64,000 bases of DNA from Lentisphaerota bacterium (lineage in GTDB: Bacteria; Verrucomicrobiota; Lentisphaeria; Victivallales; UBA1829): positions 60,670 to 124,669 of the forward strand of contig SUVR01000002.1 in the NCBI GenBank assembly GCA_015061915.1, given 5' to 3'. The notes under the pieces were generated by a model. That model made no database searches. It was not told the origin of the DNA and saw nothing but the letters and a program-made list of their open reading frames with translations. The translations under genes and the position numbers were made by a program. The first letter of the stretch is position 1; every line of letters starts with the position of its first letter. Below, in pieces: positions 1,299-64,000 of the stretch.

Positions 1299-1300
1299 AT

Positions 1301-24252: not shown

Positions 24253-25446
24253 TTATGATATTCTGACGCCTGCGATCCCTTTCAGGTAGAAACCTTCAGG
24301 GAAAGTTGCAGCTACAGGGTGGTCCGGTCCCTGTGCCATCCGGGCAAAGATCCGGAAGTCGCATTTTGCGTCGGCAGCGGCAGAATCCACCACTTTGGTA
24401 AAGAGATCGCCATCCATGGCGCCGGAGCAGGAAAAGGTAAAAAGTTTTCCACCCGGACGGAGCAGTTTCATCGCAAGCAGATTGATATCCTTGTATCCCC
24501 TGGCGGCTTTTTCCCGCTGGGCGGCGGTATCGGCAAATTTCGGGGGATCCAGCACGATCAGATCGAAGGTCCGGCGGGAATCCCGGCACTTACGGAGGAA
24601 CTGGAACACATCCGCCACCTGCGTGCCGAACTGTTCTTCTGTGAAGCCGTTTGCTTCCGCATTTTTCCGGGCGATCGCAAGAGCATCGGCGCTGGCGTCG
24701 ATGTTCAACACCCGTTTTGCACCACCGGCAAGTGCGGCAAGCCCGAAACCACCTGTATAGGAGAAACAGTTGAGAGCATCCTCCGCTCCGGCGGCAGCTT
24801 CCATTACCGTCTTCCGGCTGATCCGCTGATCCAGATAAAAGCCGGTCTTGTGACCATTGCGGGGATCGGCAGAAAACCGGATCCCGTTCTCTGTAAACTG
24901 GAAAAATTCCGGAGGCTCCTCTCCGGCAAGCAATCCGGTACGGAAGGAAAGTCCATCCCGGAGCCGGCTCTCCACATCCGACCGCTCGTAAACAGAACGG
25001 GGAGCATACTTGAGAAGCAGTTTTGCAATCACATCCCGGAAGCGGTCCATACCGGCACCGGTGATCTGGCAGACGCAGCAATCGTTGTAAACATCCGCCA
25101 CCAATCCCGGCAAACCATCGGATTCCGCATTGACCAGCCGGTAAGCATCCGGCAGGACACCGTTGAAGACCGTTTTCCGGTACAAAAACGCCTGTTCCAG
25201 TTTCCGCTCAAAGAAAGAGGCGTCGATTTTTTCCGCTTCGTTTCCGAAGGACCAGATCTTCACGGGGATGGCAGAATCCGGCGAACAGGCACCCCAGGCA
25301 AGAAAGTTTCCTTCAGAATCCACCACCCGGACGGTATCACCGGTCTTTCCGGAAAGTTTTTTCAGCGCCCCGGAAAAAATCCACGGATGTCCCCGCAAAA
25401 TTGATTTTTCCCGTCCCTGCTTCAGAACAGCAAGAGCCTCACTCAT
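24253..25446 (-). CDS. rlmI: class I SAM-dependent 23S rRNA (cytosine-C5) methyltransferase, RlmI-like
   Basis: PUA-like N-terminus (GHPWIFSGAL) with SAM-MTase motifs VLNCFSYTGGFGLAA and VLDPPKFA. The ATG at 25446 overlaps the upstream stop (AATGAGTGA). The track start at 25500 is less likely. Confidence 0.75.
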   Translation of the reverse strand: MSEALAVLKQGREKSILRGHPWIFSGALKKLSGKTGDTVRVVDSEGNFLAWGACSPDSAIPVKIWSFGNEAEKIDASFFERKLEQAFLYRKTVFNGVLPDAYRLVNAESDGLPGLVADVYNDCCVCQITGAGMDRFRDVIAKLLLKYAPRSVYERSDVESRLRDGLSFRTGLLAGEEPPEFFQFTENGIRFSADPRNGHKTGFYLDQRISRKTVMEAAAGAEDALNCFSYTGGFGLAALAGGAKRVLNIDASADALAIARKNAEANGFTEEQFGTQVADVFQFLRKCRDSRRTFDLIVLDPPKFADTAAQREKAARGYKDINLLAMKLLRPGGKLFTFSCSGAMDGDLFTKVVDSAAADAKCDFRIFARMAQGPDHPVAATFPEGFYLKGIAGVRIS

Positions 25447-32767: not shown

Positions 32768-35173
32768 ATGTATCAGGTACAGAAGCGTGACGGGAAAGTG
32801 GTGGACTTCAACATCAGCAAGATCGCAAGTGCGATCCGGCTGGCATTTGATGCCCAGGACAAGCAGAGCCATCCCTCAGTGATCGATTTTCTTGCACTGA
32901 AGGTTACGGCAGATTTTGAATCCAAGATCAAGGAAGGTCTGATTTCTGTGGAAGACATCCAGGACAGCGTGGAAGCGGTTCTGGTTCAGGGCGGTTATGC
33001 GGACGTTGCCAAGGCGTACATCATCTACCGCCGTCAGCACGAACAGCTGCGTAATGTGAAAAGCTCCATTCTCGACTACAAGAAGACGGTGGATGACTAC
33101 ATCAAGATCAATGACTGGCGCGTGAAAGAAAACTCCACGGTCACCTACTCTGTGGGCGGTCTGATCCTCTCCAACTCCGGTGCCATCACTGCCAACTACT
33201 GGCTGAGCGAAGGCTACGATGAAGAAATCGCCAACGCACACTACAATGCAGACATTCACCTGCATGACCTTTCCATGCTCACCGGTTACTGCGCCGGCTG
33301 GTCTCTGAAGCAGCTGATCCAGGTCGGTCTCGGCGGCGTCGGCGGCAAGATCACTTCCAAGCCCGCAAAGCACCTGGCGACCCTCTGCAACCAGATGGTC
33401 AACTTCCTCGGCATCATGCAGAATGAATGGGCGGGCGCACAGGCATTCTCCTCCTTTGATACCTATCTTGCTCCGTTCGTGAAGGCGGATAATCTGAGCT
33501 ATGAACAGGTCAAGAAGTGCATTGAATCCTTCATCTTCGGCGTGAACACGCCCTCCCGCTGGGGTACGCAGGCTCCCTTCTCCAACATTACGCTGGACTG
33601 GACTGTTCCCAACGACCTGGCGGAACTCAACGCCATTGTCGGCGGCAAGGAAATGCCTTTCAAGTACAAAGACTGCAAGAAGGAAATGGATATGGTCAAC
33701 CGCGCGTTCATCGAAACGATGATCGAAGGCGACGCCAACGGCCGCGGTTTCCAGTACCCGATCCCGACTTACAGCATCACCCGCGACTTCGACTGGTCCG
33801 AAACGGATAACAACAAACTGCTGTTTGAAATGACTTCCAAGTACGGTACGCCCTACTTCTCCAACTACATCAACAGCGACATGGAACCCAGCGACGTCCG
33901 CAGTATGTGCTGCCGTCTGCGCCTCGACCTGCGCGAACTCCGCAAGAAATCCGGCGGTTTCTTCGGCAGCGGTGAAAGCACCGGGTCCATCGGCGTTGTG
34001 ACGATCAATATGCCCCGTATCGGCTACCTGGCGACCAACAAGGAAAACTTCTATGAACGCCTGGATCACCTGATGGACATTGCGGCGCGCTCCCTCAAGA
34101 TCAAGCGTACCATCATCACCAAGCTGCTGGATGGCGGTCTCTATCCCTACACCAAGCACTATCTGGGATCCTTCGACAACCACTTCTCCACCATCGGTCT
34201 GGTCGGCATGAACGAAACCTGCCTGAACGCCAACTGGGTGGGCTGCGATCTGACGCACAAGGAAGCACAGGAATTCACGCAGGAAGTGCTGAACCATATG
34301 CGGGAACGCCTCTCCGATTATCAGGAAAAATACGGCGACCTGTACAACCTGGAAGCCACGCCCGCAGAATCCACGGCGTTCCGTCTGGCGAAGCACGACA
34401 AGAAGCGTTTTGCAGACATCATCACCGCCGGTGCCGATGGCGAAGCACCGTATTACACGAACAGCAGCCACCTGCCCGTCAGCTACACGGAAGACATCTT
34501 CACGGCTCTGGATATTCAGGATGACCTGCAGACCCTCTACACCTCCGGTACCGTGTTCCACGCCTTCCTGGGAGAAAAAATGCCGGATTGGAAGAGCGCT
34601 GCAACTCTCGTCCGCAAGATCGCAGAAAACTACAAACTGCCGTACTACACCCTCTCCCCGACCTATGCCGTCTGCAAGAACCACGGCTACATTGCCGGTG
34701 AAAAGTGGACCTGCCCCAAGTGCGGCGAACGCACGGAAGTTTACAGCCGTATCACCGGTTACTACCGCCCGGTCCAGAACTGGAACGACGGTAAGTCTCA
34801 GGAATTCCGCGAACGCAAGACCTACGACCAGAAGATCGCTCTGACCAAGGAACCGGAATGCAAGAAACTGGATCCGGTGGTCTCTGTGACCGATCCCGCC
34901 GTGGAAGCAGTCGCAGAAACCAAGCAGGGCAACGGCGATCCGGCACTGCTGCTCTTCACCACCAAGACCTGCCCCAACTGCAAACTGGCAAAACACTTCC
35001 TGGATAAAGCCGGCATTGAATACAAAGTGATGCTGGCGGAAGAATCCATGGATCTGGTCAACAAGCTGGGGATCAAGCAGACCCCGACGCTGGTGATCCA
35101 GGATGGCGACAGCGCTGACAAGATCGTGAACCTCTCCAACATCCGCAAGTTCACGGAAGAAAGCGTTGGCTGA
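32768..35173 (+). CDS. nrdD: anaerobic ribonucleoside-triphosphate reductase (class III) with C-terminal glutaredoxin-like domain fusion
   Basis: N-terminal ATP-cone, a Zn-ribbon CKNHGY...CPKCG and the glycyl-radical motif SRITGYYRPV. About 100 extra C-terminal residues end in a thioredoxin-fold segment, LLLFTTKTCPNCKLAKHFLDKAGIEYKVM...TPTLVI (nt 34943-35170). Confidence 0.95.
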   Translation: MYQVQKRDGKVVDFNISKIASAIRLAFDAQDKQSHPSVIDFLALKVTADFESKIKEGLISVEDIQDSVEAVLVQGGYADVAKAYIIYRRQHEQLRNVKSSILDYKKTVDDYIKINDWRVKENSTVTYSVGGLILSNSGAITANYWLSEGYDEEIANAHYNADIHLHDLSMLTGYCAGWSLKQLIQVGLGGVGGKITSKPAKHLATLCNQMVNFLGIMQNEWAGAQAFSSFDTYLAPFVKADNLSYEQVKKCIESFIFGVNTPSRWGTQAPFSNITLDWTVPNDLAELNAIVGGKEMPFKYKDCKKEMDMVNRAFIETMIEGDANGRGFQYPIPTYSITRDFDWSETDNNKLLFEMTSKYGTPYFSNYINSDMEPSDVRSMCCRLRLDLRELRKKSGGFFGSGESTGSIGVVTINMPRIGYLATNKENFYERLDHLMDIAARSLKIKRTIITKLLDGGLYPYTKHYLGSFDNHFSTIGLVGMNETCLNANWVGCDLTHKEAQEFTQEVLNHMRERLSDYQEKYGDLYNLEATPAESTAFRLAKHDKKRFADIITAGADGEAPYYTNSSHLPVSYTEDIFTALDIQDDLQTLYTSGTVFHAFLGEKMPDWKSAATLVRKIAENYKLPYYTLSPTYAVCKNHGYIAGEKWTCPKCGERTEVYSRITGYYRPVQNWNDGKSQEFRERKTYDQKIALTKEPECKKLDPVVSVTDPAVEAVAETKQGNGDPALLLFTTKTCPNCKLAKHFLDKAGIEYKVMLAEESMDLVNKLGIKQTPTLVIQDGDSADKIVNLSNIRKFTEESVG

Positions 35174-35175
35174 TC

Positions 35176-36111
35176 GTGGAAACCGGTATGACGGACTATG
35201 ATATCATCATCGCCGGTGCCGGTCCTGCCGGGCTGACAGCGGCGATCTATGCGCGGCGCGCCGGTAAATCCGTTCTCGTGCTGGAAAAAGCCGCTTTCGG
35301 CGGGCAGATCACACACTCGCCGAAAGTGGAGAACTATCCCGGTTTTCCCGTCATCAGCGGAAATGAGCTGGCGGAAAAATTGATGGATCAGGCTCTTGCC
35401 CTCGGTGCAGAAGTGGATGTGGATACAGTTATCGATGTGGTGGATCTGGGCGAATGGAAAAGCGTGATCACGGAAAGCAAGGAATACATTTGCAGTGCCG
35501 TGATCATCGCCTCCGGTTCCAAACACCGCACACTCGGTCTACCCAACGAGGAAGAACTGACCGGAAACGGCGTCTCCTACTGCGTGCTGTGCGATGGTGC
35601 GTTTTTTGCCGGGCGTGAAGTCGCTGTGATCGGCGGCGGCAACTCCGCTCTTCAGGAAGCGGTGCTGCTTTCCGAGACCTGCAGCAAAGTCACTGTAATC
35701 CAGAATCTCGGATTTCTGACCGGAGAAGAAAGCCTGATCAAAAATCTTCAGGCACGGCAGAACGTCCATTTCATCTTCAACACCATTGTAACGGGGTTGA
35801 ACGGGAAGGATGAACTGACCAGTCTGACGCTGAAAAATACGGAAAGCAATACGGAATCCGATTTTGCCGTAAACGGCATTTTCGTTGCCATCGGTCAGGT
35901 TCCGGAGAACAAGCCCTTTGCCGGGGTTTGCGATATTGACGAACGGGGCTATATCGTGGCAAATGAAACTTGCTGCACCCGCACTGCCGGTGTGTTTGTG
36001 GCAGGCGACTGCCGCACGAAAGGCATCCGTCAGATCACAACAGCAACCGGTGATGGTGCCAGCGCCGCACTTGCAGCCTGCAAGTATATCGAAGATACGC
36101 GCGTGCTGTAA
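35176..36111 (+). CDS. trxB: thioredoxin-disulfide reductase
   Basis: FAD motif DIIIAGAGPAGLTAAIYARRAG, redox-active CVLCDG and NADPH motif VAVIGGGNSALQEA. The start is either the GTG at 35176 (2 nt after the nrdD stop) or the ATG at 35188. Confidence 0.85.
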   Translation: METGMTDYDIIIAGAGPAGLTAAIYARRAGKSVLVLEKAAFGGQITHSPKVENYPGFPVISGNELAEKLMDQALALGAEVDVDTVIDVVDLGEWKSVITESKEYICSAVIIASGSKHRTLGLPNEEELTGNGVSYCVLCDGAFFAGREVAVIGGGNSALQEAVLLSETCSKVTVIQNLGFLTGEESLIKNLQARQNVHFIFNTIVTGLNGKDELTSLTLKNTESNTESDFAVNGIFVAIGQVPENKPFAGVCDIDERGYIVANETCCTRTAGVFVAGDCRTKGIRQITTATGDGASAALAACKYIEDTRVL

Positions 36112-50312: not shown

Positions 50313-51491
50313 TTACAAGCCGAAAGCGGCAAAAAGCGCCACAAATTTATTCAGAAACTTCTTGAAGAAACCGGTCCCGACGGGATGAGCTTCGCTATCC
50401 TTTTTTTCATCAAAAGTTGCTTCGTACTGACGGAGCAAATCCTTCTGTTCCGGGGTCAGTTTTTTAGGTACTTCAATGGTAAAACGGAGGTAGTGGGTAC
50501 CAAAGCTTCCACGCCGTCTCAACGACGGCATACCTTTATTTGCAACCCGCTGAACATCACCGTTTTGTGTTCCAGAAGGAACCATAAATTTCATCGGTCC
50601 GTGAATGGTGGGGATATCGATTTCTCCCCCCAGTGCAGCAACGGTAAATTTGATCGGAACATCGCAATAAATATCATCGCCTTCCCGTTCAAAAAGTTCA
50701 TGATCGCGGACACTGATATCCACATAAAGATCGCCGTCTCTGCCGCCCCGGAGACCGGGTTCACCTTCACCTGCCACACGCAGTCTGGAACCGGTATCCA
50801 CACCGGCGGGAATATGCACTTCCACGGAGCGTTTCAAGCGTACATGACCGGTGGCATTACACTTCTTACAGGGCTTTTCCGGAACGGACCCGGCGCCGCC
50901 GCAATCCGGACATTCCTGCATCATCGTAAAGAATCCCTGAGAGATCCCCACCTGTCCGGTCCCTTTACAGCGTTTGCAGGGCACTCTGACACCGGATTCG
51001 CAACCGGTACCGTGGCACGCCTCGCAGGCGCCCTGACGTACAAATTCCAGCTTCTTTGTAACACCGTTCACGGCATCCATAAAATCGATTTCCAACGGGT
51101 AGCGCAGGTCGTTTCCTGCCATGGGGGCATTGGGATCGCGTCTTCTTCCGCCACCGCCGAAAAAGGACTCAAAACCGCCCATTCCGCCGCCACCGCCGAA
51201 GAACTGGTTGAAGATATCAAAGGGATCGCCGCTGAAACCGCCGCCTCCGCCGCGTCCGGCGCCGGAGAAGGCATCTTCGCCGTACTGGTCATACAACTTG
51301 CGCTTTTCCGGATTGGAAAGTACATCGTACGCCTGTGCGATCTTCTTGAACTTTTCTTCCGCTTCTTTGTTGCCCTGATTTTTGTCCGGGTGATACTTGA
51401 TGGCAAGTTTGCGGTATGCTTTCTTGATCGCGGTCTCGTCTGCATCCACCGGGATCTCAAGCAGATCGTAGTATGTGGTATCAACAGCCAT
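50313..51491 (-). CDS. dnaJ: molecular chaperone DnaJ
   Basis: J-domain [32 protein letters not shown], a G/F-rich region and four CxxCxGxG zinc-finger repeats. The start overlaps the htpG stop (TAATG). Confidence 0.95.
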
Positions 51492-53398
51492 TATTCTGCA
51501 CTCAATTCTTTCTGGATGGATTCCGTCATCAGCAGCACGGTACGGCGGGCGAATTTCGCCGGATCAGGCAGGGTTGCGCCTTCGCTGATCAACGCCTGAT
51601 CGTAAAGCAGTTCCGCATAGTCCGGCAGGCTGGCGGCAGAAGGATCTTTTTCATACAGACTCTTCAGCGCACCGATCAGGGGGCTTTCCCCGTTCAGTTC
51701 CAGGATCCGTTTCACATCCGGGCTTTCCTGCCCCATCGCTTTGAAAAGACGCTGCATGGAAACGGAGGGATCGTAGTCATCGCCCACCAGACAGCAGGGA
51801 CTTTCCGTCAGACGGGAAGAGAAGCGCACATCTTTGACCTTGTCTTCCAGTGTTTTCTTCAAAAACTCCACAAGTTCTTTGTTTTCTTCGGTTTCCTTCT
51901 TCGTCTTTTCGTCCAGTTCCTTCTGTACGGATTCATCAAACTTGACTTCGCCCTTGAGGACGGAAACCAGATCTTTTTCCGCATACTTTGCGATGTCATC
52001 CATGATAATTTCGTCCATGGGTTCATACAGGAACAGCACATCGTACCCCTGCTTGCGGAACATCTCCAGCTGGGGAGAGAACTCCAGCGCTTCCCGGCGG
52101 TCGCCGGTGATGTAATAGATCGCCTTCTGGGTGGCGGGCATTGCATCGGAGTACTCTTTGAGCGTCATCAACTTACCGCTGTTCATGGATTCAAAAAGGA
52201 GCAGATCCTGCAGTTTTTCTTTGTTATTGAAATCCGTATGAACACCGCCCTTGATCATGGGGCTGAATTCCTTGTAAAATTCCTCGTAAGCCTCCCGGTC
52301 CTTCGTGAGCATTTTATCCAGTTCAGAGAGAACACGCTTCACAATGCTCTTGCTGATGCGGGCGATCTGGGGATTATCCTGCAGCGTCTCGCGGGAAACA
52401 TTCAGCGGCAGATCGCTGGAATCCACCACGCCGGCAACAAAGCCCATATATTCCGGCAGCAGACCGGGGCAGTTGTCCGTGATGAACACGCGGCGGACAT
52501 AAAGCTGGATCTGTTTGTGATCCTTGTTCATACCCATCCGGTAGCTCATAGGCATTTTGCCGGCGATGTAAAGCAGCGACTTGAATTCCGAAGCACCTTC
52601 CGCACTGAAACTGATCCGGCGGGCGGGCTTGTTGTAGTCCATACTGATGTGCTGATAGAACTGGTCGTATTCTTCTTCCGTCACTTCACTTTCCGGACGC
52701 AGCCAGATAGCTTTCATGGTGTTCAGCGTACTGTCTTCCACCTCTTCCTTGCCGTCTTTGGTCACGGTATGTTTCATGCGGATGGGGTATTCGATAAAGT
52801 CGGAATACTTGCGGATGAGTTCCGCCACACGCCAGTAGTCCAGATAAGCCTCAAAATCTTCTTTGAGATAGAGGGTGATCCGGGTACCGGGCGCATCCTT
52901 GCTGACTTCTTCGATGGAGAAATCGTTTTCGCCGTCGCTGATCCACTTCCACGCCTGCGCTTCGCCGTCCTTCTTCGTTTCGACGGTGACTTTATCCGCC
53001 GCCATGAAGGCAGAGTAGAACCCGACCCCGAACTGTCCGATGAGTTCCGGTGCGCTGACAGAGCCTTCTTCCTTGGCCTTTTCCAGCGCTTCGGTAAACG
53101 CTTTGGTTCCGGAGTGGGCGATCGTCCCCAGGTTTTCGATCAGTTCATCCCGGTTCATCCCCACGCCGTTATCGGAGATGATGAGGGTTTTTGTGTCTTT
53201 ATCCGCTTCGATCCGGATCTCCCAATCCCGGATCATATCCTGCTGTGTGAGGGAGAGAAAACGGGCTTTATCAATAGCGTCTGCCGCATTGGCGACCAGT
53301 TCCCGCAGGAAAATATCTTTGTTGGAATAGACGGAATGGATGACCAGCGAAAGCAGTTCGCGGATCTCCGCTTTGAATTGTAAATTTTCAGTTGCCAT
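51491..53398 (-). CDS. htpG: molecular chaperone HtpG (Hsp90)
   Basis: N-terminal [34 protein letters not shown], the GHKL ATPase motif. The ATG at 53398 is preceded by AAGGAGG. The track start at 53437 is less likely. Confidence 0.95.
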
Positions 53399-54770: not shown

Positions 54771-55000
54771 AAAAAATCACTTTCATTCCTGTTTCATTCA
54801 ATCCGGTAAAAGGGTCTTTAATATAGCACTGCAACGACAAAAAAACAAGAAGTCGCCGCAAGAAAAACATCCTTCTTTCATAAAATGAAAAAAATCCGGA
54901 AACTTTCCACTTTTGCCCTTGCTTTTTTCATGCAACCGGAGTATGTTATATCCCCGATTGGACAAATGGCATACAACTGAAAATTTCGGACACTGGAGAC

Positions 55001-56518
55001 ATGAAAACCATCGGCTTTGACAACGATTTGTATCTGCGCCAGCAATCGGAGGAGATCCTGGACCGCGCAGCCCGCTTCGACAACAAACTTTATCTGGAAT
55101 TCGGGGGCAAACTGGCTTACGACCTGCACGCAGCACGCATCCTGCCCGGATTCGATCCCAATGTCAAACTGCAGCTGCTGCAACGCCTGCGGGACAAAAT
55201 CGATGTAGTGATCTGTATTTATGCCGGCGATATCGAACGTAAAAAGATCCGTGCCGACTTCGGGATCGCATACGATGCCGACACGATGCGGATCATCGAC
55301 AACCTCCGGGAACACGGGATCAGCGTCAAAGCCGTGGTTGTGACCCGTTACGACGGGCACCCGGCAGTCAACAGTTTCATCAACAAACTGGAACGGCGGG
55401 GGATCCGGGTTTACAAACACAACTCCATCAAGGGCTATCCTGCGGATGTGGACCTGATCGTCAGCGAAAACGGCTACGGTGCCAACGAATACATCGAAAC
55501 AGATAAACCCATTGTCATCGTCACCGGACCCGGTCCCAGCAGCGGAAAGATGGCGACCTGCCTTTCTCAGGTCTATCACGAACACCTGCGGGGCGTTTCC
55601 GCCGGTTATGCCAAGTTCGAGACTTTCCCCGTCTGGAACCTGCCGCTGAACCACCCCGTGAACATTGCTTACGAAGCCGCAACGGCTGATATCGGCGACG
55701 TCAACATGGTGGACTCCTTCCATCTGGAAGCCACCGGTCAGACCGCCATCAACTACAACCGGGACATTGCGATCTTCCCGGTGGTCCGCCGGATCTGTGA
55801 ACGGATCATGGGCAAGGATCAGGCATACGTCTCTCCCACGGATATGGGTGTGAACCGGGTCGGGTTTGCCATTTCCGATGATGACGCTGTCTGTTATGCG
55901 GCAAAACAGGAAATCATCCGCCGCTACTTCCGCTATCGCTGCGAGTATGCGCTGGGGGCGACGGAAAAAGCCACCATCGACCGGATCAAAGTTTTGATGG
56001 ACAACCTCAATCTGCAGGAAGAGGACCGTAATACTGTGGCACCCGCACGGGCAGCTGCAGAACAGGCGGCAAACGAAAGCGGCAAAGGTGACGACGGCTA
56101 CTACTGCGGGGCGGCACTGGAACTGCCGGACGGCAGGATCATCACCGGCAAAAACTCCCCGATCCTTCATGCCTCTGCCGCGTGCGTGCTGAACGCCATC
56201 AAGGCACTGGCGAATCTGCCCGCCGAACTGCTGCTGCTTGCTCCGGCAGTCATTGATTCCGTATCCAAGCTGAAGCACGATATTATCCAGACCCGCCGCA
56301 CCAGTATGGACCTGGATGAAATGCTGATCGCCCTGGCGGTGAGCGCCTCCAACAGTCCGGCAGTCAGTCTGGCAATGAAACAGCTTTCCAGCCTCAGCGG
56401 CTGTGAAATGCACATTTCCCATATGCCCTCCCCCGGCGATGAAGCGGGATTGCGGAAGCTGGGGATCAACCTGACTTGCGACCCGAAGTTCGCCAGCCGG
56501 GACCTCTTCATCAGTTAA
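55001..56518 (+). CDS. DUF1846 (UPF0371) family protein
   Basis: 505 aa. The N-terminus MKTIGFDNDLYLRQQSEEILDRAARFDNKLYLEFGGKL...ARILPGFDPNVKLQLL matches my recollection of the UPF0371 family. Confidence 0.7.
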   Translation: MKTIGFDNDLYLRQQSEEILDRAARFDNKLYLEFGGKLAYDLHAARILPGFDPNVKLQLLQRLRDKIDVVICIYAGDIERKKIRADFGIAYDADTMRIIDNLREHGISVKAVVVTRYDGHPAVNSFINKLERRGIRVYKHNSIKGYPADVDLIVSENGYGANEYIETDKPIVIVTGPGPSSGKMATCLSQVYHEHLRGVSAGYAKFETFPVWNLPLNHPVNIAYEAATADIGDVNMVDSFHLEATGQTAINYNRDIAIFPVVRRICERIMGKDQAYVSPTDMGVNRVGFAISDDDAVCYAAKQEIIRRYFRYRCEYALGATEKATIDRIKVLMDNLNLQEEDRNTVAPARAAAEQAANESGKGDDGYYCGAALELPDGRIITGKNSPILHASAACVLNAIKALANLPAELLLLAPAVIDSVSKLKHDIIQTRRTSMDLDEMLIALAVSASNSPAVSLAMKQLSSLSGCEMHISHMPSPGDEAGLRKLGINLTCDPKFASRDLFIS

Positions 56519-56576
56519 CAGAAAATTCAACCACGTAAAACAATATCAACCCAAAGAACAGAAAGGCTTAAGAAAG

Positions 56577-57590: not shown

Positions 57591-57622
57591 AAGCGACGAT
57601 CCTCTGAGGATACAAAACGCAG

Positions 57623-57657
57623 CGAAGCACAGCCAGACGGTTGTGCTTCGTTTTTTT
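57623..57657 (+). terminator. intrinsic terminator of pta
   Basis: CGAAGCACA-(10 nt)-TGTGCTTCG followed by T7. Confidence 0.8.
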
Positions 57658-57691
57658 GTAGAGATATTTTGTAAAAAAGCAGTAAAATGCC

Positions 57692-57720
57692 TTGTGAAAA
57701 GTGCGGTACGGGATTATAGT
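57692..57720 (+). promoter_or_regulatory. putative sigma70 promoter of the atypical ABC operon (TTGTGA-N17-TATAGT)
   Basis: TTGTGA at 57692-57697 and TATAGT at 57715-57720, 24 nt upstream of the ATG at 57744. Pattern only. Confidence 0.35.
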
Positions 57721-57743: not shown

Positions 57744-60386
57744 ATGAATTGGAAAAATATCTGGCAACACGGACTGATCAAGACTGCAGGGATCATGATC
57801 GCTGCAGTGTTTCTGCTTGCCCTGATGATCCGGGGGATCACCTTCCTTCTGCCATCAAACGGAGATGAGTCGCTTACCACTGTTCCACAGCAGATGACCG
57901 CCAAAAAACGGATCCCGCTGCGTTTGCAACGGGTTCCGGATCCCCGGCTGACCAGTCCCCGGAACAAGGCGGAACAGGCCGTTTTTCAGGCATTTCTGAA
58001 GAAGCACCCGGAGGTTGAAGTTTCGGCATTTTCCGGGATCACCATTGCCAACATTCAGGCGGAATCGGAGATCATGCTTGCCATCGCCGGAGGGAACGCG
58101 CCGGATGTTTTCACCTACATCAATTTCCGGATGTCCGATTCCTATATCCAGCAATCCTTTCTTTATCCGCTGGACGGCTTTCTGGACAGGGACAGATTTG
58201 AAGGAGGCAGAGACGCGTATCTGAACAGTCTTGCCAAACCGATCCGCCCGGTGGTAAAACGCAACGGTCCTGCCATTGGAGACAATGCGGCAGGCGAACA
58301 TATCTGGGCGATGCCCGGTCCGCTTGCCGTGCGTGTTCTGATGTGGCGGAAAGATCTTTTCCAAGAGGCTGGTCTTGATCCGGAACGCCCGCCGCAGGAC
58401 TGGGAGGAATTGCTCTCCTATGCGAAGTGTCTCTCCGATCCCGTTACGGAAAAATACGGTCTGAACATGGATGGCGGACCGCAGGCGGCGTGGGATTTTA
58501 TGGCATTTCTCTGGTCGGCAGGCGGCGAAGCCGTGATTCAGAATGAATCCGGGGAATGGATTGCAGCGTACGGGTCCCGTCAGGCAGCAGAAGCCCTTGA
58601 TTTTTATCTCCGGCTCGCCACGGAACCGTGGATCGATGCAGACGGCAAACAGCAGCGCGGCTATACGGTCCTTTCCGCCAATGCCGGTTCCGTCATGGAA
58701 CGGGATCTGTGGAACGAAGGGCGGATCGGGATGAAAGTGGGTTATCTGGACAGTCAGAACATGGCGGGGAATGTGGATATGGCGCTGATCGGGATCGCCC
58801 CTTTTCCGCCCCACAGACGGGGTGAAAAATCCGGCACGGAACTCAACGCGATCATGACCGGGATCTTTTCCGGGATCGAAGGCAGAAAAAATTCCGCAGG
58901 CGAATGGTGCTCTGCCGATGAGATCCGGGAGGCAGCCTGGCAATACATCCGTTTTATCAATTCGGATGAAGCCAGACAAATCTATGCAGATACTCTGGTG
59001 GCAAACGGTTTGGGCAGAACGCTCAGTCCGGAATATCTGCGGAAGTATGGCTATCCGGAATATCTGAAGTTTTTTCCGCCGGAACTGGAGGAAACGTTCC
59101 ACGATGCCGTACAGAACGGCAAACCGGAGCCTTACGGCAGAAATTGTCAGATGGTTTACACCTTTATGACCGAACCGCTGAACAAAGCACTTCAGCTTGC
59201 CCGTGATGCTGACCTGCCATCCGATCGGGAGAAACGGCTTGAGATCCTGCAGGAGATCCTGAAAAGCTCCGAACGGAAAACAACAGAACAGATGCTGGGC
59301 AATCTTTCGCCGGAAGAACGGGAATTCCGGAATCTCTGGGCGGGGATCGCTGCATTTCTGATCTGTGCGCTGTTCTGTCTGGCGCTCTATAAAATCTGGC
59401 AGATTTTTTCTCCGAAAGATGATTTCTCCGGCAAACAGAAGGGATGGCAATTCCGCAAAAATGCTGTGGCGTATCTCATCATGCTGCCGGCACTGCTGAG
59501 TATCCTGCTCTGGGTGTATTACCCCATGACATTCGGATCCATGCTGCTCTTTCAGGACTACCGGGTGACCGGCGGTTCGGAATGGACCGGGCTGAACAAC
59601 CTGGCAGATGTATTGTTCAGTGCGGATTGGTGGGCAAGTGTCTGGAATACGATGCGGTATATGTTCTGGATTCTGGGTCTGGGGTTTGTGGTGCCGATCA
59701 TCCTTGCCATCCTGCTGCAGGAGGTTTCTCACTGCAAGCTGCTCTACCGGACACTCTTTTACCTGCCGGCAGTGATGAGCGGGCTGGTGGTGATCTATAT
59801 GTGGAAACTTTTTTACCAGTCCGGACCGGCAGGGATCATGAATCAGGTACTGCAATCTCTTACGGATGGTCTGAACTTCATTCTTGTGCCGGCAGTCTCT
59901 CTTTTCGATCCGGAATTCACCGGGATCCCCTTTGAACCGGTGGCGTGGCTGGAAGACGCAAAATGGGCAATGCTTTCCTGTGTCCTTCCGGCGATCTGGG
60001 CAAGTGCCGGACCCGGCTGCCTCATCTATCTTGCGGCGCTCAAAAGTGTGCCGGAAGAAACCTATGAGGCGGCAGAGATCGATGGAGCAAACTTCTTCCG
60101 GAAAGTATGGCACGTAACACTGCCGACGCTGAAGCCATTGATCATTATCAATTTTGTAGGGGCGTTCATCGGTGCAGCTCAAAGCGGCGGGATGATCCTG
60201 ATCATGACCTACGGCAATGCAGAAACCAATGTGGCAGAACTGCAGATCTTCAAGGAGGCTTACACCAATCTGCGCTTCGGAACTGCCATTGGAATGGCAT
60301 GGCTGTTGGGGATCACCACGCTGTTCTTTACGATTTATCAGCTGCGACGGCTTTCCAATATGGAATTCAAGATAACAGGGAAATGA
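57744..60386 (+). CDS. fusion protein: TM anchor + family-1 extracellular solute-binding domain + TM + MalF-like ABC permease
   Basis: 880 aa. TM helix at residues about 12-36. SBP_bac_1-like domain at about 75-525 (AIAGGNAPDVF, WAMPGPLAVRVLMWRKDLFQEAGLDP...W(E/D)ELL). Second TM at about 531-553. A sugar-type BPD_transp_1 permease core runs from about 570 (AVAYLIMLPALLSILLWVYYPM ... EAAEIDGANFFRKVWHVTLPTLKP). Confidence 0.8.
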   Translation: MNWKNIWQHGLIKTAGIMIAAVFLLALMIRGITFLLPSNGDESLTTVPQQMTAKKRIPLRLQRVPDPRLTSPRNKAEQAVFQAFLKKHPEVEVSAFSGITIANIQAESEIMLAIAGGNAPDVFTYINFRMSDSYIQQSFLYPLDGFLDRDRFEGGRDAYLNSLAKPIRPVVKRNGPAIGDNAAGEHIWAMPGPLAVRVLMWRKDLFQEAGLDPERPPQDWEELLSYAKCLSDPVTEKYGLNMDGGPQAAWDFMAFLWSAGGEAVIQNESGEWIAAYGSRQAAEALDFYLRLATEPWIDADGKQQRGYTVLSANAGSVMERDLWNEGRIGMKVGYLDSQNMAGNVDMALIGIAPFPPHRRGEKSGTELNAIMTGIFSGIEGRKNSAGEWCSADEIREAAWQYIRFINSDEARQIYADTLVANGLGRTLSPEYLRKYGYPEYLKFFPPELEETFHDAVQNGKPEPYGRNCQMVYTFMTEPLNKALQLARDADLPSDREKRLEILQEILKSSERKTTEQMLGNLSPEEREFRNLWAGIAAFLICALFCLALYKIWQIFSPKDDFSGKQKGWQFRKNAVAYLIMLPALLSILLWVYYPMTFGSMLLFQDYRVTGGSEWTGLNNLADVLFSADWWASVWNTMRYMFWILGLGFVVPIILAILLQEVSHCKLLYRTLFYLPAVMSGLVVIYMWKLFYQSGPAGIMNQVLQSLTDGLNFILVPAVSLFDPEFTGIPFEPVAWLEDAKWAMLSCVLPAIWASAGPGCLIYLAALKSVPEETYEAAEIDGANFFRKVWHVTLPTLKPLIIINFVGAFIGAAQSGGMILIMTYGNAETNVAELQIFKEAYTNLRFGTAIGMAWLLGITTLFFTIYQLRRLSNMEFKITGK

Positions 60387-60389
60387 TTT

Positions 60390-62924
60390 ATGGCGATCAT
60401 CGGTAAAATAGAACGGAAAAGCTGGAAAGTGATCCTGTTGAGTGTGGTGATCCACCTGATCCTGATTCTGGGGGCAGCGACTATGGTCTATCCCCTGCTT
60501 CTGATGCTTTCCGGATCAGTCAAAAGTTCCGTCGACTTCAAAAACTTCACCCTCTTTCCTGAATACCTGCTCACAGAAAGCGATGGTCAGGAACTGCTGT
60601 TCAAAAAGTATCTGGCTACAAAGTATAACAACCAAGTTCTGCGTATGGCAGGCGATTTCAAAGATCCCGGTGCCACCTTTGATACCGTCGCGCCTCCATT
60701 CCGGAAAAATCAGGTGCGGCGTACTGCAGACTATCAGGATTTTCTGGCGGAATGTAAAAAAGAACTGCCGCATTACTGGTTCCTGCTCGGAATGGCATAC
60801 GAACCCGGGATAGACCCGCTTTCCCTGCGTAATTTCCGGGCATTTCTGCAAGACGGCCGGACCGATACCAACCGGGCGCTGCGTGAGCTGAACGAGGCGT
60901 GTAATACACAGTTCACCGATTGGAACGAAATCTCACTGCCGGCAGAAAACTTTTTCCTGCGGCGGAATTCCGGAGATTACAGTTCCGGTCTGCTGAAAAG
61001 GCTCCACGAATTCAAGTACAGCAGGCATACAGGATTGCTGGTCGAGATCTGGCCGGATATGGAGGGTGATTTCATTGCAATGCTGCGGCGGGACTGCGGC
61101 AGAAGTCTTGAGTCGATCAATCAATCTCTGCAAACGGATTACAATTCCTGGAAGGAGATCATTCTTCCGGAAAAAGTTCCGGCGGAAAATCCATTGCTTG
61201 CAGCCCGCTGGGAAGAATTTGTCAAAAACGAAATCAACGCTGCCTTTATCACGGTCGAACCCCGTCTTGCACTTGCTCCCTGGCGACACTTCCTGAAGGA
61301 AAAATATGGCGACCTCGCCACACTGAACAAGTCGCACGGCACGCAATATACCGATTGGAACAATATCCCGTTCAGCAACAATGTACCCCAATCCGGGATC
61401 CTGCGGATCGATTGGATGGATTTTGTCAGCGGTAATTCCACGCATAAAAAAATGTGGCATGATTTTCTGAAGAAAAAATATGCGAACCGTATCAGTAATC
61501 TGAACACAGAATGGGGTACGGGATTCCGTACCTTCGGCGAAATACCGTTCCATAATTCCCGAAGCGATAATGAGGCAGAAAACCGGGCAGCCGCAGAACT
61601 GGATGAATTGATCCGCCGCAACCGGAAGAAAGAGATCCCCGCAGAAGCGATCACGCTTCATACGCTGGCGAACCGGTACCGGGCATGGCTGAAAAACCAT
61701 TACTCCGGCAGTCTCGGAGCAGTGGCGAACGCGTACGGCATGGGCTGTAATACATTCCAGGAAGTAACATTGCAGGGAACTGCACCCGGTGAAAATAATC
61801 TGGCAGAACATTCAGACTGGCTGGAATTTCTGCGCACTCTGCCGCCGGAAAAGATCGGACTCCTCCGCAGCGCCGCCGGAAACTACCGGCAATATCTCCG
61901 GGATCTGTACACAAAAGATGGGGTCTGCGATTTTGATGCGATGAGCCGGGATTACGGCAAAACGATCACCGGTGAAAACAACATTCCCATCCACCTGGTC
62001 TGCCCGCCTTCCGGCAAGGCTCGCACCGACTATCTTCATGCGATCCGTAACGATCTCCTTCCCGGTCAATATGTTCTGCCGGATCCGCAAAAATACAGTT
62101 CGGACTGGCATTCTTTTCTGGAGAAAAAGTATGTCAATATCCGGGAACTGAACCGGAAATGGCGTCTCATTCCCCGGACTTTTAACGACTTTTCCCTGCC
62201 GACCCGGGAACACGAATGGCAGCTGTTGCAGGAAAATGCCGCCTTCCTGCGAAATGAATACTTGACCAGGAATTACAAAATGGTCTTCAGTACCCTGTTC
62301 ACCAACGGTAATGCGGCAGTCAATACATTGATCTATTGTCTGCTTTCGGTTCTGGCGGCACTGCTGATCAATCCGCTTTGTGCATACGGACTTTCCCGTT
62401 ACAAACCGGCTTCATCCTATAAGATCCTGCTCTTCCTTATGCTGCCGATGGCGTTTCCTGCCATGGTGCTGGGAATTCCGCAATTTCTGCTGATCCGGGA
62501 TTTGGGACTGCTCAATACCTTCGCCGCCCTGATCCTGCCGGGAATCGCAAACGGATATTCCATCTTTCTGCTCAAGGGATTTTTTGACAGCCTTCCGAAG
62601 GAGTTGTACGAATCCGCCGCCATCGACGGAGCCGGCGAATGGACCGTTTTCTGGCAGATCGGGATGCGCCTTTCCACACCGGTTCTGGCAGTCATTGCAC
62701 TGGGCTCCTTCACCGCCGCTTACGGCAATTTTATGATGGCATTCCTGCTCTGCCAGAAAAAAGATATGTGGACGATGATGGTCTATCTCTACCAACTGCA
62801 GCAGACCTCTTCCCCGGCAGTGGGATTCGCCGCCCTGGCAATCGCCGCGATCCCCACGCTGATCGTGTTCATCTTCTGTCAGAACATCATTATCAAAGGG
62901 ATCGTTGTCCCCACCGAAAAATAA
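60390..62924 (+). CDS. MalG-like ABC permease with ~585-aa repeat-containing extracytoplasmic insertion
   Basis: 844 aa. TM1 at residues about 12-40 (VYPLLLMLSGSVKS). The MalG-type core lies only in the last ~215 aa (ESAAIDGAGEWTVFWQIGMRLSTPV). Residues about 45-630 contain eight copies of an aromatic-x2-aromatic-L...Y...LN...I.(L/F)P module. Confidence 0.8.
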   Translation: MAIIGKIERKSWKVILLSVVIHLILILGAATMVYPLLLMLSGSVKSSVDFKNFTLFPEYLLTESDGQELLFKKYLATKYNNQVLRMAGDFKDPGATFDTVAPPFRKNQVRRTADYQDFLAECKKELPHYWFLLGMAYEPGIDPLSLRNFRAFLQDGRTDTNRALRELNEACNTQFTDWNEISLPAENFFLRRNSGDYSSGLLKRLHEFKYSRHTGLLVEIWPDMEGDFIAMLRRDCGRSLESINQSLQTDYNSWKEIILPEKVPAENPLLAARWEEFVKNEINAAFITVEPRLALAPWRHFLKEKYGDLATLNKSHGTQYTDWNNIPFSNNVPQSGILRIDWMDFVSGNSTHKKMWHDFLKKKYANRISNLNTEWGTGFRTFGEIPFHNSRSDNEAENRAAAELDELIRRNRKKEIPAEAITLHTLANRYRAWLKNHYSGSLGAVANAYGMGCNTFQEVTLQGTAPGENNLAEHSDWLEFLRTLPPEKIGLLRSAAGNYRQYLRDLYTKDGVCDFDAMSRDYGKTITGENNIPIHLVCPPSGKARTDYLHAIRNDLLPGQYVLPDPQKYSSDWHSFLEKKYVNIRELNRKWRLIPRTFNDFSLPTREHEWQLLQENAAFLRNEYLTRNYKMVFSTLFTNGNAAVNTLIYCLLSVLAALLINPLCAYGLSRYKPASSYKILLFLMLPMAFPAMVLGIPQFLLIRDLGLLNTFAALILPGIANGYSIFLLKGFFDSLPKELYESAAIDGAGEWTVFWQIGMRLSTPVLAVIALGSFTAAYGNFMMAFLLCQKKDMWTMMVYLYQLQQTSSPAVGFAALAIAAIPTLIVFIFCQNIIIKGIVVPTEK

Positions 62925-62927
62925 ACA

Positions 62928-64000
62928 TCAACAGCCGTTCAGCATAGCTGCAATGTCCCGTTCCGGCTCTCCGATCCCCTTCAGATCAAAGTTTTCCACC
63001 AGCACCTTCGCCACGCCGGGAGAGAGAAACGCCGGCAGTGTGGGACCGAGACGGATCTTCCGGTAGCCGAGGGACAACAATGCAAGCAGGACCGCCACCG
63101 CTTTCTGTTCGTACCAGGCGAGATCAAAAGAGACCGGCACCCGGATCCCGGAAAGATCGCTGATCGTCTTGAGCATCGTCACAATCCGGTAGCTGTCGTT
63201 GCACTGTCCGGCATCAAGGATGTTCTTCCGGTTCAACTTGAGAAAACGGAATTTTGCGCACCCGGCAGTCACGATCAACACATCATCCGGCAGGGCTTCA
63301 GCCACACGGGTATAATAATCCCGGCTCCGGTGTCTGCCGTCACAACCCGCCATCACCACGATCCGGCGGATCCTGCCTGCCATCACATCTTCCGCGATCC
63401 CGGTCAGATCCGGCAGCCCCCCGTGAATAAGATTATTTTCCAGCTGTCGCGGCAGCGGACAGGTCTTCGCCAATGCAATTACTGCCCCGAAATCTTTTGG
63501 CGAACCATCCGGGATGTGGGGGATGTTCGGATAACCCGCCGTTCCGGTGGTGAAAATCCGATCCTGATAACTGCTCTGCACCGGAATGATACAGTTGGTC
63601 GTCAGAATGATCGGACCGTTGAACGAAGCAAATTCTTCGTTCTGACGGAACCAGGAAGAACCATAGTTGCCGTAAAGATGCTGAAATTTCTTCAGAACAG
63701 GATAATAATGTGCCGGCAGCATTTCACCGTGCGTATAAACATCCACCCCGGAATGTTCCGTCTGCTGCAGCAGTTCGTAAAGATCCTGCAGATCGTGACC
63801 CGAAATCAGGATCCCGGGGCGGGGACCGGTGCCGGTCCGGACGGAAGTGGAAACCGGATCGCCGAACCGTTCCCGGTGGGCAGCATCCAGCAGCGCCATC
63901 GTATCGACAGCCGTTCTGCCGCAGGCAAGAACCAGCTCCGTCATAGCATCAACAGATTCCTCCATCACAGTAGCGGCAAGGGCTTTGAACAGGAAATCAC
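62928..64000 (-). CDS. hcp: hydroxylamine reductase / hybrid-cluster protein, C-terminal part (gene continues beyond window end)
   Basis: HGEMLPAHYYPVLKKFQHLYGNYGSSWFRQNEEF and GPIILTTNCI are typical Hcp segments. The frame stays open upstream of the track start (63968 is an internal GTG) to nt 64000. Confidence 0.85.
   Translation of the reverse strand, partial: DFLFKALAATVMEESVDAMTELVLACGRTAVDTMALLDAAHRERFGDPVSTSVRTGTGPRPGILISGHDLQDLYELLQQTEHSGVDVYTHGEMLPAHYYPVLKKFQHLYGNYGSSWFRQNEEFASFNGPIILTTNCIIPVQSSYQDRIFTTGTAGYPNIPHIPDGSPKDFGAVIALAKTCPLPRQLENNLIHGGLPDLTGIAEDVMAGRIRRIVVMAGCDGRHRSRDYYTRVAEALPDDVLIVTAGCAKFRFLKLNRKNILDAGQCNDSYRIVTMLKTISDLSGIRVPVSFDLAWYEQKAVAVLLALLSLGYRKIRLGPTLPAFLSPGVAKVLVENFDLKGIGEPERDIAAMLNGC

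Follow-up and report, generated by a model that had tools for sequence, protein, structure and literature searches.

A gut- or rumen-type Lentisphaerota bacterium encodes a sugar-type ABC importer in which the receptor is fused to a membrane subunit. We favor, with a probability of roughly 80%, a model in which two neighboring genes, ORF1 and ORF2, form a two-gene operon for the membrane part of a CUT1-like importer, the receptor being an N-terminal domain of ~460 residues within the first permease subunit. Both genes lie on the forward strand of the 64-kb stretch of DNA analysed here (64,000 nucleotides, hereafter the window), and all features described below are on that strand unless noted otherwise.

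ORF1 is a single ATG-initiated open reading frame of 880 aa in the ORF listing, with coordinates (57744-60386) identical to those claimed in an earlier note on this DNA. Pfam and AF2 also uphold the order of parts proposed there for a single polypeptide, namely a hydrophobic N-terminus, a family-1 domain, an extra transmembrane (TM) helix and a first-permease core, to which we add a K/R-rich loop between the extra helix and the six-helix core. SBP_bac_1 matches residues 75-411 (E 9.8e-18), SBP_bac_8 residues 80-416 (E 2.9e-11) and BPD_transp_1 residues 670-864 (E 5.4e-13); apart from the first two, the only Pfam match in the binding domain is a weak one to SBP_bac_11. Hydropathy places TM segments at residues 17-35, 531-549, 574-592, 640-658 and 666-689, with weaker ones at about 791-811 and at 846-864. 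The AF2 monomer (mean pLDDT 77, pTM 0.71) consists of a helix at 12-32, an alpha/beta domain at 57-518, a long helix at 523-555 and permease helices at 574-877, the membrane domain being only moderately modelled in this monomeric form. Pfam, Foldseek and alignment agree on a family-1 (CUT1-type) substrate-binding domain at residues ~57-518 (57912-59297), a block with pLDDT mostly between 85 and 95. Its best Foldseek matches are the full-length sugar-binding proteins 5f7v, 5ci5, 1eu8 and 7c6x, with target-normalised TM-scores of 0.72-0.78, and its alignment contains invariant Trp, Asp, Glu and Asn columns as well as several invariant Arg residues.

In principle, a binding-protein gene could have been joined to a permease gene by mis-assembly, by a frameshift or by the collapse of a gene boundary, all the more as these genes adjoin in the same order in the nearest unfused relatives, from actinomycetes and Ktedonobacterales, where the permease is likewise MalF-like. 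However, independent assemblies (NCBI, JGI, ENA and Logan) contain the exact ORF1 sequence on at least 23 contigs with the same neighbors; it is identical to the 880-aa NCBI protein MBE6407318.1, encoded on a 254-kb contig (JGI 3300024269). Moreover, the junction recurs in ~200 clusters of homologues together with the extra TM helix, which unfused permeases lack, and the junction residues are conserved. An artefact is refuted by these contigs and by the family-wide junction, leaving it a negligible probability, and the reading frame is intact across the boundary at which the earlier note had considered an assembly error. Nearly all of the top ~120 homologues are 800-900 aa long and carry the same domain pair.

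A search with the junction alone (residues 380-640) returned 376 cluster representatives at E <= 1e-3 and 200 at E <= 1e-10 (clusters at 50% identity), most of them aligning over the whole junction. These homologues come from Lentisphaerota, Verrucomicrobiota, Kiritimatiellae, Planctomycetota, Armatimonadota, Cloacimonadota and Omnitrophota, and one of them (locus L020) belongs to the cultured Oligosphaera ethanolica DSM 24202. Both domains are present in one chain in 111 of the 148 listed representatives that were re-scanned, always with the binding domain first. The fused architecture is a large, old family spread across several little-studied phyla rather than a rarity. The earlier note did not know such fusions to be typical of CUT1-like sugar systems. 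In one sense this stands, as we found no description of a fused binding domain in CUT1 importers in the full-text literature, although a database-only record of the architecture is possible; with ~200 clusters in several phyla, however, the architecture is not rare. The longest members of the family (1021-1495 aa) were considered as candidates for tandem binding domains, but Pfam finds no second domain in them and the additional length appears to consist of insertions.

The junction itself consists of a short conserved tether and the extra TM helix (residues 523-555, 59310-59408), recognized in the AF2 model and in the alignment. In the model this helix begins only 4 residues past the last binding-domain helix. 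Its membrane segment is hydrophobic in all 54 aligned homologues, with W552 invariant and F544, F555 and P557 nearly so. It leads into the C-terminal part of a K/R-rich inter-helix loop (residues 556-573, 59409-59462), predicted to be cytoplasmic from a K/R count that finds six such residues within 550-573. AlgM1, a type I importer membrane domain, has a cytoplasmic N-terminus. The K/R-rich loop and the alignment to AlgM1 together imply an outside-to-inside orientation of helix 531-549, which in turn makes the binding domain extracytoplasmic. The claim that this domain lies outside the cell is thus borne out by the positive-inside loop at 550-573 and by the alignment to AlgM1 TM1.

The opposite end of the domain is preceded by a hydrophobic segment (residues ~12-36, 57777-57851) with a Kyte-Doolittle value of 2.45 over residues 17-35. 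It could be a signal peptide or an uncleaved signal anchor, and is ambiguous in ORF1 because a longer hydrophobic stretch is combined with a possible cleavage site between PSNG and D. The second option would hold the receptor at both ends, as the earlier note claimed, and would yield an eight-helix MalF-like subunit with the receptor within its first periplasmic loop. Several features are in keeping with such a double tether: the hydrophobic stretch is long (IMIAAVFLLALMIRGITFLL) and has no textbook AxA site in ORF1 and its close relatives, the 21-residue linker that follows is long enough for a tether, AF2 predicts a 21-residue helix at 12-32, and E. coli MalF likewise has two extra N-terminal helices. 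Against it, that AF2 helix has a low pLDDT (58-65), the PSNG site is usable, and the N-terminal sequence is not conserved across the 54 homologues. Most of these homologues have N-termini that resemble ordinary cleavable Sec signal peptides, with an n-h-c layout and an AxA-like site (for example ...SIPNLNA/ADEKK, ...PVRTMA/ADG and ...SHLAA/AEK, the slash marking cleavage). The distance from hydrophobic core to first domain strand has a median of only 9 residues among the 54, too short for a retained anchor, and a crude screen detects a hydrophobic core together with a (-3,-1) motif in 70 of 108 full-length representatives. Tethering at both ends is therefore not established, and we regard it as a tentative and somewhat improbable reading.

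The remainder of ORF1 (residues 574-880, 59463-60383) is a six-helix type I importer membrane core, as judged from BPD_transp_1, NCBIfam and PDB matches. AlgM1 is its best solved relative, with ORF1 residues 570-851 aligning to AlgM1 residues 8-273 (4tqu_M, 1.9e-16); SugA and MalF are further PDB sequence matches. The EAA coupling loop, read from the translation (EAAEIDGANFFRKVWHVTLP, 60066-60125), is intact, and Y774, A776, D780, G781 and P794 are invariant. The earlier note had spoken of a complete MalF-type core. The core has six helices and this loop, but "MalF-type" is a loose description. E. coli MalF has eight TM helices and a ~180-aa periplasmic P2 domain between TM3 and TM4, whereas the ORF1 loop where P2 would sit (residues 593-639) spans ~47 aa and contains no such domain. 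With the MalF equivalog model ORF1 reaches 26.8 bits, where the cut-off is 392, so that it is not an E. coli-type MalF. The NCBIfam models for UgpA, GlcT and MalF all match below their cut-offs, with UgpA and UgpB among the best matches. Since the curated equivalog models all fall far below cut-off, no characterised transporter can be named as an orthologue.

ORF2 (60390-62924, 844 aa) starts 3 nt past the ORF1 stop in the same direction, is translationally coupled to it and encodes a MalG-like second permease according to the ORF listing, Pfam, NCBIfam, PDB matches and AF2. The MalG (6.7e-21), GlcU and UgpE models of NCBIfam match below their cut-offs, BPD_transp_1 is again found by Pfam, and the PDB sequence matches are MalG (2r6g_G, 3.4e-16), SugB and AlgM2. 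Residues 8-60 align with MalG TM1 and residues 652-839 with MalG 94-290. The MalG-like membrane core delimited by the MalG model and 2r6g_G (62295-62921) contains an intact EAA loop (ESAAIDGAGEW...) that is invariant in the alignment. Between MalG TM1 and TM2 lies an all-helical insertion of ~590 aa (residues ~45-635, 60522-62294), placed in the periplasm by the alignment and the AF2 model. AF2 predicts most of residues 60-630 with a pLDDT of about 85-95, while the membrane domain is poorly modelled as a monomer (pLDDT < 50).

Of the whole system, this insertion, which the earlier note does not mention, is the part least well explained. A Foldseek comparison with the PDB gave no significant match for it, and when the insertion alone was searched by sequence, the domain turned up only inside MalG-like permeases. 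It contains a ~45-aa motif (W..FL..KY....LN..W.T.F..W.EI..P; motif region 60816-62213, from Pfam and our own HMM) in at least five clear copies, at residues 143-190, 222-266, 292-335, 350-394 and 570-608, and in a weaker copy at 425-468. An HMM built from four of the copies recovered the unseeded one at 570-608 with an E-value of 4e-7. The motif is similar to part of the GH42 enzymes, matching positions 136-210 of the 376 in Pfam Glyco_hydro_42 in two stretches, and some NCBI homologues of ORF2 are named "beta-galactosidase". We considered and rejected this assignment for ORF2. What it shares with GH42 beta-galactosidases is the helical motif FL..KY....LN..W.T.F; those enzymes have a complete (beta/alpha)8 catalytic domain, whereas in ORF2 the match is confined to a repeated fragment, with no TIM barrel, no catalytic domain and an all-helical model without a significant match to a GH fold. 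The name is a mis-annotation.

The transporter pair is set apart from the upstream pta gene by an intrinsic-terminator-like hairpin (57621-57652; a 14-pair stem and then a T-run), and between this hairpin and ORF1 two sigma-70-like promoter matches overlap (57659-57720), each a consensus match only, at 9 of 12 positions. Downstream, a convergent Prismane/hcp gene lies on the reverse strand (62928-63968; Pfam). A regex scan for Walker A plus LSGGQ found no MalK-like ATPase in the 64-kb window, which together with the convergent hcp bears out what the earlier note had said about the neighborhood. ABC signatures occur in the window only at ~1295-2026 (forward strand) and 25439-27511 (reverse strand), belonging to a short ABC ATPase and an exporter-type protein that we rejected as MalK partners. 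Clusters at 32.7-37 kb and 44.3-50 kb were also rejected as ATPase candidates, encoding NrdD plus a thioredoxin reductase-like protein and CdaA/YbbR/FolP/GyrA, respectively. As no ATPase gene is adjacent, a MalK/MsiK-like ATPase encoded elsewhere would be needed. This need, foreseen in the earlier note, is supported by two homologous loci in which a MalK-type ATPase (ABC_tran, OB_MalK and TOBE_2) adjoins the pair: in L087 its gene overlaps the start of the fused gene and in L088 it follows the long MalG gene. The two loci are distant, and the adjacency ties the gene pair to the CUT1 type. In a further homologous locus (L027), an ABC ATPase ORF of 369 aa stop-to-stop lies 6 kb upstream; it lacks an OB_MalK/TOBE tail and was not counted as a partner.

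Pfam, the PDB matches and the MalK-type ATPases of homologous loci thus uphold the proposed CUT1-like, sugar-type affiliation. The receptor is of family 1 (SBP_bac_1 type), and there are two distinct membrane subunits, each with an EAA loop, ORF1 being MalF/UgpA-like and ORF2 MalG/UgpE-like. We infer that the substrate is a sugar or oligosaccharide. An importer of the same fused build might instead take up another ligand, such as glycerol-3-phosphate or another small solute, or its domain might act mainly as a sensor. UgpA and UgpB among the best NCBIfam matches, though far below cut-off, and the invariant Arg residues of the domain would fit such a ligand. The genomic setting would fit as well: the window neighbors are housekeeping genes (pta, hcp and htpG) with no glycoside hydrolase beside the pair, and in several Armatimonadota loci the fused gene is likewise surrounded by housekeeping genes and not part of a polysaccharide locus. 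However, the top structural neighbors of the domain all bind di- or oligosaccharides, the adjoining ATPases of L087 and L088 are of MalK type, and many homologous loci contain carbohydrate genes, among them GH35/42, GH20, GH38, GH130, GH4, CBM9_1 proteins and GntR or LacI regulators. Intact EAA loops favor transport over a purely sensory role. We therefore consider a non-sugar ligand or a sensor improbable. A homodimer of ORF1 with two binding domains, as in OpuA and GlnPQ, and with ORF2 separate or accessory, is in our view very improbable. It draws on seven loci (six from Armatimonadota and one from Verrucomicrobiota) in which the fused gene has no MalG-like gene within 8 kb, which imply that a heterodimer is not universal in the family. 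By contrast, among about 34 assessable loci from six phyla, about 27 have a long MalG gene following the fused gene. The spacing of 3 nt between ORF1 and ORF2, the MalG core with its invariant EAA loop kept in ORF2, and the matched solved CUT1 systems, all of which are F/G heterodimers, also speak against it.

For the CUT1-like heterodimer that we favor, we propose that the N-terminal hydrophobic signal would export the ORF1 chain, allowing the binding domain to fold outside the membrane. The short conserved tether would then lead directly into the extra TM helix, which would return the chain to the cytoplasm; this helix is needed because a CUT1 membrane core must start inside. The six-helix core would pair with MalG-like ORF2, giving a complex with, presumably, one permanently tethered binding domain. 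On closing around its ligand, this domain would dock on the ORF1/ORF2 heterodimer and set off ATP hydrolysis in a pair of MalK-type ATPase subunits whose gene would lie elsewhere in the genome. The helical-repeat insertion of ORF2, with its ~590 residues, would project into the periplasm beside the tethered domain. By analogy with the P2 loop of MalF and the scaffold domain of OpuA, we speculate that it most likely serves as a scaffold or cradle for that domain.

The solved CUT1 importers AlgM1M2SS-AlgQ2 (4tqu), LpqY-SugABC (7cad, 8ja7) and MalFGK2-MalE (2r6g) share with the system described here F-like and G-like subunits with EAA loops and a two-lobed family-1 sugar receptor; their MalK-type ATPase with an OB/TOBE tail has counterparts adjacent to the homologous pairs in L087 and L088. 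They differ in that receptor and F-like subunit form one covalent chain in ORF1, joined through an extra TM helix, and in that the G-like ORF2 carries a large periplasmic insertion while ORF1 has no P2. In the literature that we found, fused binding domains are described only for GlnPQ and OpuA. A signal sequence precedes the binding domains in the GlnPQ chain, and the order of signal sequence, binding domain and membrane domain in one polypeptide is that of ORF1. In this PAAT-family importer the binding domains are fused N-terminally to the membrane domain, keeping a tethered receptor beside the translocator (PMC8025302). GlnPQ has two tandem SBP_bac_3-type domains on a homodimeric translocator, and hence four receptors, whereas the one SBP_bac_1-type domain of ORF1 on an ORF1/ORF2 heterodimer presumably gives one. 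ORF1 also needs an additional TM helix, its CUT1 core starting in the cytoplasm. In OpuA, of the OTCN family, the binding domain is fused via a short linker and an anchoring TM helix, and there is a scaffold domain (PMC11065425). ORF1 thus resembles OpuA in its short tether, its dedicated anchoring helix and the presence of an extra extracytoplasmic element in the complex, but in OpuA the binding domain is C-terminal and of OpuAC type and the translocator is a homodimer. The linker and anchor of OpuA are reported not to be conserved (PMC11065425), whereas those of ORF1 are conserved across phyla. As in other chimeric importers, receptor and membrane domain share one polypeptide in ORF1. The receptor, however, is neither of SBP_bac_3 (GlnP) nor of OpuAC (OpuA) type, and the translocator would have, as judged from the genes alone, a separate MalG-like partner that carries no binding domain and whose gene is co-conserved with ORF1.

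These features raise the more speculative idea of a distinct class of sugar ABC importers in PVC-group bacteria, Armatimonadota and Cloacimonadota. Here the free periplasmic binding protein would be replaced by a built-in receptor on a short, conserved, rigid F-subunit tether, together with a G-subunit helical-repeat domain of ~400-600 residues, of a fold not in the PDB, that might cradle the receptor or hand glycans to it; some Armatimonadota fused subunits may work without a G partner. That this holds in full we consider unlikely. If it were true, there would be a third way of tethering receptors, distinct in mechanism from those of GlnPQ and OpuA, and CUT1 would have its first. Many single-molecule and structural studies of how ligand capture is coupled to translocation in ABC importers are built on fused receptors, all from these two families, which are homodimeric and not specific for sugars. 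A CUT1 system that is fused by nature would provide a new and stoichiometrically simpler model, with one receptor on a heterodimeric translocator, a short tether shared across phyla and a large periplasmic domain contributed by the partner subunit, and could help explain how diderm PVC-group bacteria capture glycans. At present, genes of the family are annotated as "extracellular solute-binding protein", "AraP" or "beta-galactosidase", names that hide the fused architecture and mislead counts of CAZymes and transporters in metagenomes.

The 880-aa binding-domain/permease protein, ORF1, is encoded by a single uninterrupted ATG reading frame (57744..60386, + strand), as the earlier note had claimed, and is identical to NCBI MBE6407318.1, named 'extracellular solute-binding protein [Lentisphaerae bacterium]'. 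At least 23 contigs across NCBI, JGI, ENA and Logan carry the exact sequence, and its gene neighbours there match those in the window. A word-indexed search returned 379 ORF1 homologues, the best 120 of which are almost all 800-900 aa long and carry the same Pfam pair. The extent of the fused family was measured with a junction-only query (residues 380-640, comprising the end of the binding domain, the tether, the extra transmembrane helix and the first core helix) run against 1.84 billion cluster representatives. It gave 376 matches at E <= 1e-3, of which 200 reached <= 1e-10 and 64 reached <= 1e-30; most span the entire junction, at positions ~340-690 in proteins of 800-1000 aa. Both domains reside in one chain in 111 of 148 re-scanned representatives, always with the binding domain N-terminal; the others are fragments. 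Because the junction itself is homologous, these data argue for a single ancient fusion rather than many recent events. An assembly artefact is rejected by this family-wide homology and by the identical protein on independent contig records.

The architecture is widespread, not singular: the 200 stronger junction matches come from several phyla. A scan of species-representative genomes combined with phmmer mapping located single-ORF fusions in Lentisphaerota (including the cultured Oligosphaera ethanolica DSM 24202), Verrucomicrobiota and Kiritimatiellae, Planctomycetota (Phycisphaerae, Tepidisphaeraceae and Planctomycetaceae), Armatimonadota, Cloacimonadota and Omnitrophota. Next in rank come actinomycetes and one Ktedonobacterales MAG, where the genes for the binding protein and for the MalF-like (F) and MalG-like (G) permease subunits are separate; the matches in Paenibacillus and Chloroflexota loci are to separate F and G genes only. 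At least two paralogues of the fused transporter are present in GCA_022703945.1, so a single organism uses the fused format for two or more transporters. The longest family members reach 1000-1500 aa (P0319, 1495 aa; P0217, 1222 aa; also P0278, P0192 and P0219), and Pfam detects no second binding domain in these five proteins, which points to an insertion within or around the existing one.

Pfam assigns SBP_bac_1 (residues 75-411, E 9.8e-18), SBP_bac_8 (80-416) and BPD_transp_1 (670-864, E 5.4e-13) to ORF1. The proposed CUT1 affiliation holds: AlgM1 residues 8-273 are the best solved match to ORF1 residues 570-851 (1.9e-16), followed by SugA and MalF, and several CUT1 sugar-binding proteins match the middle part. 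The NCBIfam models UgpA, GlcT and MalF match the C-terminal third, all far under their equivalog cut-offs. An AF2 model built from an alignment of 54 homologues (mean pLDDT 77, pTM 0.71) begins with a low-confidence helix (residues 12-32), is disordered over 34-52, and continues with a confident alpha/beta domain (57-518), one long helix at 523-555 that starts four residues past the final binding-domain helix, and permease helices at 574-877. The top Foldseek PDB matches are exclusively full-length sugar- or oligosaccharide-binding proteins (target-normalised TM-score 0.72-0.78), among them the Lmo0181 cycloalternan binder, Tlet_1705, the T. litoralis trehalose/maltose-binding protein, T. maritima MalE3 and a beta-glycoside-binding protein; the predicted receptor fold is thus complete. 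The EAA coupling loop (EAAEIDGANFFRKVWHVTLP) is intact, with key residues invariant across the 54 sequences.

By hydropathy, residues 17-35, 531-549 and 574-592 are transmembrane, and the remaining core helices come after them. The 24-residue loop between 549 and 574 contains six K/R residues, and helix 574-592 aligns with TM1 of AlgM1. In type I importers, TM1 of AlgM1-type cores starts in the cytoplasm. Together these features indicate that helix 531-549 runs from outside to inside and that the binding domain is extracellular, in keeping with the original proposal. The extra helix is required because the CUT1 core begins on the inside, and the unfused actinomycete MalF-like relatives begin directly at the core without it. 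All 54 homologues keep the C-terminal tether and anchor hydrophobic, and the sequence here is conserved, with W552 invariant and F544, F555 and P557 nearly so. OpuA differs: PMC11065425 reports that its linker and anchor lack conservation.

The claim that the receptor is tethered at both ends hinges on retention of the N-terminal helix in mature ORF1. This region is not conserved among the 54 homologues, most of which are laid out like cleavable Sec signal peptides (for example MKRRVFFTTLLSAGIAVLISLLSIPNLNA↓ADEKK, ...LPVRTMA↓ADG and ...FSHLAA↓AEK), and 70 of 108 full-length representatives pass a crude test for a hydrophobic core and a (-3,-1) motif. The median spacing from hydrophobic core to first binding-domain strand is only 9 residues, leaving no space for a retained anchor, and double tethering is unlikely as a trait of the whole family. 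However, the window protein and its close relatives deviate, with a ~20-residue hydrophobic stretch, broken by Arg, and a 21-residue linker that would suit retention, but they also contain a possible P-S-N-G↓D site. From these sequence features we consider a double tether in the window protein conceivable but somewhat doubtful.

The partner, ORF2, has a MalG-like core: alignments pair its first 60 residues with MalG TM1 and residues 652-839 with MalG 94-290 (3.4e-16), the MalG, GlcU and UgpE NCBIfam models match its C-terminus under cut-off, and its EAA loop is invariant. A ~590-residue periplasmic insertion (window 60522-62294, residues ~45-635) separates TM1 from TM2 and is predicted by AF2 to be all-helical (pLDDT about 85-95). 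Foldseek found no significant PDB match to the insertion, SugB and MalG weakly matching the membrane core only, and an insertion-only sequence search matched solely inside MalG-like permeases. Within the insertion, a ~45-aa motif (W..FL..KY....LN..W.T.F..W.EI..P) recurs in at least five clear copies, with a weaker one at 425-468; an HMM from four copies recovered an unseeded copy at 570-608 (E 4e-7). This repeated, GH42-like motif accounts for a partial Glyco_hydro_42 match confined to profile positions 136-210, and hence for the name 'beta-galactosidase' on some NCBI homologues, which is a mis-annotation.

Of about 34 assessable loci, about 27 have the long MalG gene after the fused gene. Seven loci have no MalG-like gene within 8 kb (L008, L011, L012, L014, L016 and L017 from Armatimonadota; L015 from Verrucomicrobiota), and a homodimer or an unlinked partner is a possibility there. 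Neighbours of these lone genes are housekeeping, such as recA, rpsB and GGDEF: the fused gene at L014 7899-10301 is flanked by recA and an HNH/methylase pair, and that at L008 7893-10316 adjoins rpsB. In two Lentisphaeria-type loci a 209-aa protein without Pfam match is encoded directly 3' of the long MalG gene (L089 14865-15494; L092 14869-15498), and one of the same length lies close by in a third (L091 6776-7405); it may be a conserved accessory gene.

No MalK-like ATPase is encoded within the 64-kb window. Two distant family members have an ATPase of 366-368 aa (ABC_tran + OB_MalK + TOBE_2) as an immediate neighbour. Its gene in L087 comes after a GH130 gene and overlaps the fused gene's start; the one in L088 lies 3' of the long MalG gene, in a locus where GH4 is encoded upstream. 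This adjacency ties the pair to MalK-type energisation and supports the suggestion of an ATPase encoded elsewhere. Other neighbours across homologous loci include GH35/42, GH20, GH38 and GntR or LacI regulators; since they are carbohydrate-related but inconsistent, no specific substrate can be assigned. As speculation, the mannosidase, hexosaminidase, galactosidase and GH130 genes among the neighbours hint at host or plant glycan fragments. In five loci, representing at least four different organisms, a protein with a CBM9_1 domain (377-1147 aa) is encoded a few kb or less from the fused pair (L001 6868-9909; L002 1963-5004; L087 5646-6779; L088 1392-4268; and, as a faint match, L091 3298-6741); these proteins may work with the transporter in capturing glycans.

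The tethered receptor on a type I importer is already known as a principle, as are CUT1 F and G cores, family-1 receptors and MalK-type ATPases as parts. Their combination, with the receptor fused, appears undescribed, as do the additional helix that returns the chain to the inside, a heterodimer bearing only one receptor, and the partner's helical-repeat domain; our full-text searches turned up no description of a binding-domain fusion in CUT1 or sugar systems or of the long MalG insertion. Public databases already contain these proteins, with names that are generic or wrong. The fused CUT1 importer breaks no paradigm, but it would be useful as a new model system and for correcting annotation.

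ORF2 (60390..62924, +, 844 aa) is co-directional with ORF1 and begins 3 nt after it. Upstream, pta ends at 57590, followed by a hairpin with a 14-pair stem and T-run (57621-57652) and two promoter-like matches (57659-57720), and a Prismane/hcp gene lies convergent 3' of ORF2; from this arrangement the two genes look like a self-contained operon. Very long antisense ORFs of 866, 636 and 550 aa (57855-60455, -; 51473-53383, +; 54878-56530, -) shadow the transporter, htpG and DUF1846 genes, respectively. Their translations are low-complexity and rich in Arg, Pro and Gly, and they look like non-coding shadow frames, a potential trap for gene callers. Elsewhere in the window, an NrdD (ATP-cone + NRDD; 32768-35173, +) carries a C-terminal thioredoxin/glutaredoxin-like domain (residues ~720-781) and is directly followed by a thioredoxin-reductase-like flavoprotein (35176-36111, +), an arrangement suggestive of a reductant system, fused or co-encoded, for the anaerobic ribonucleotide reductase.
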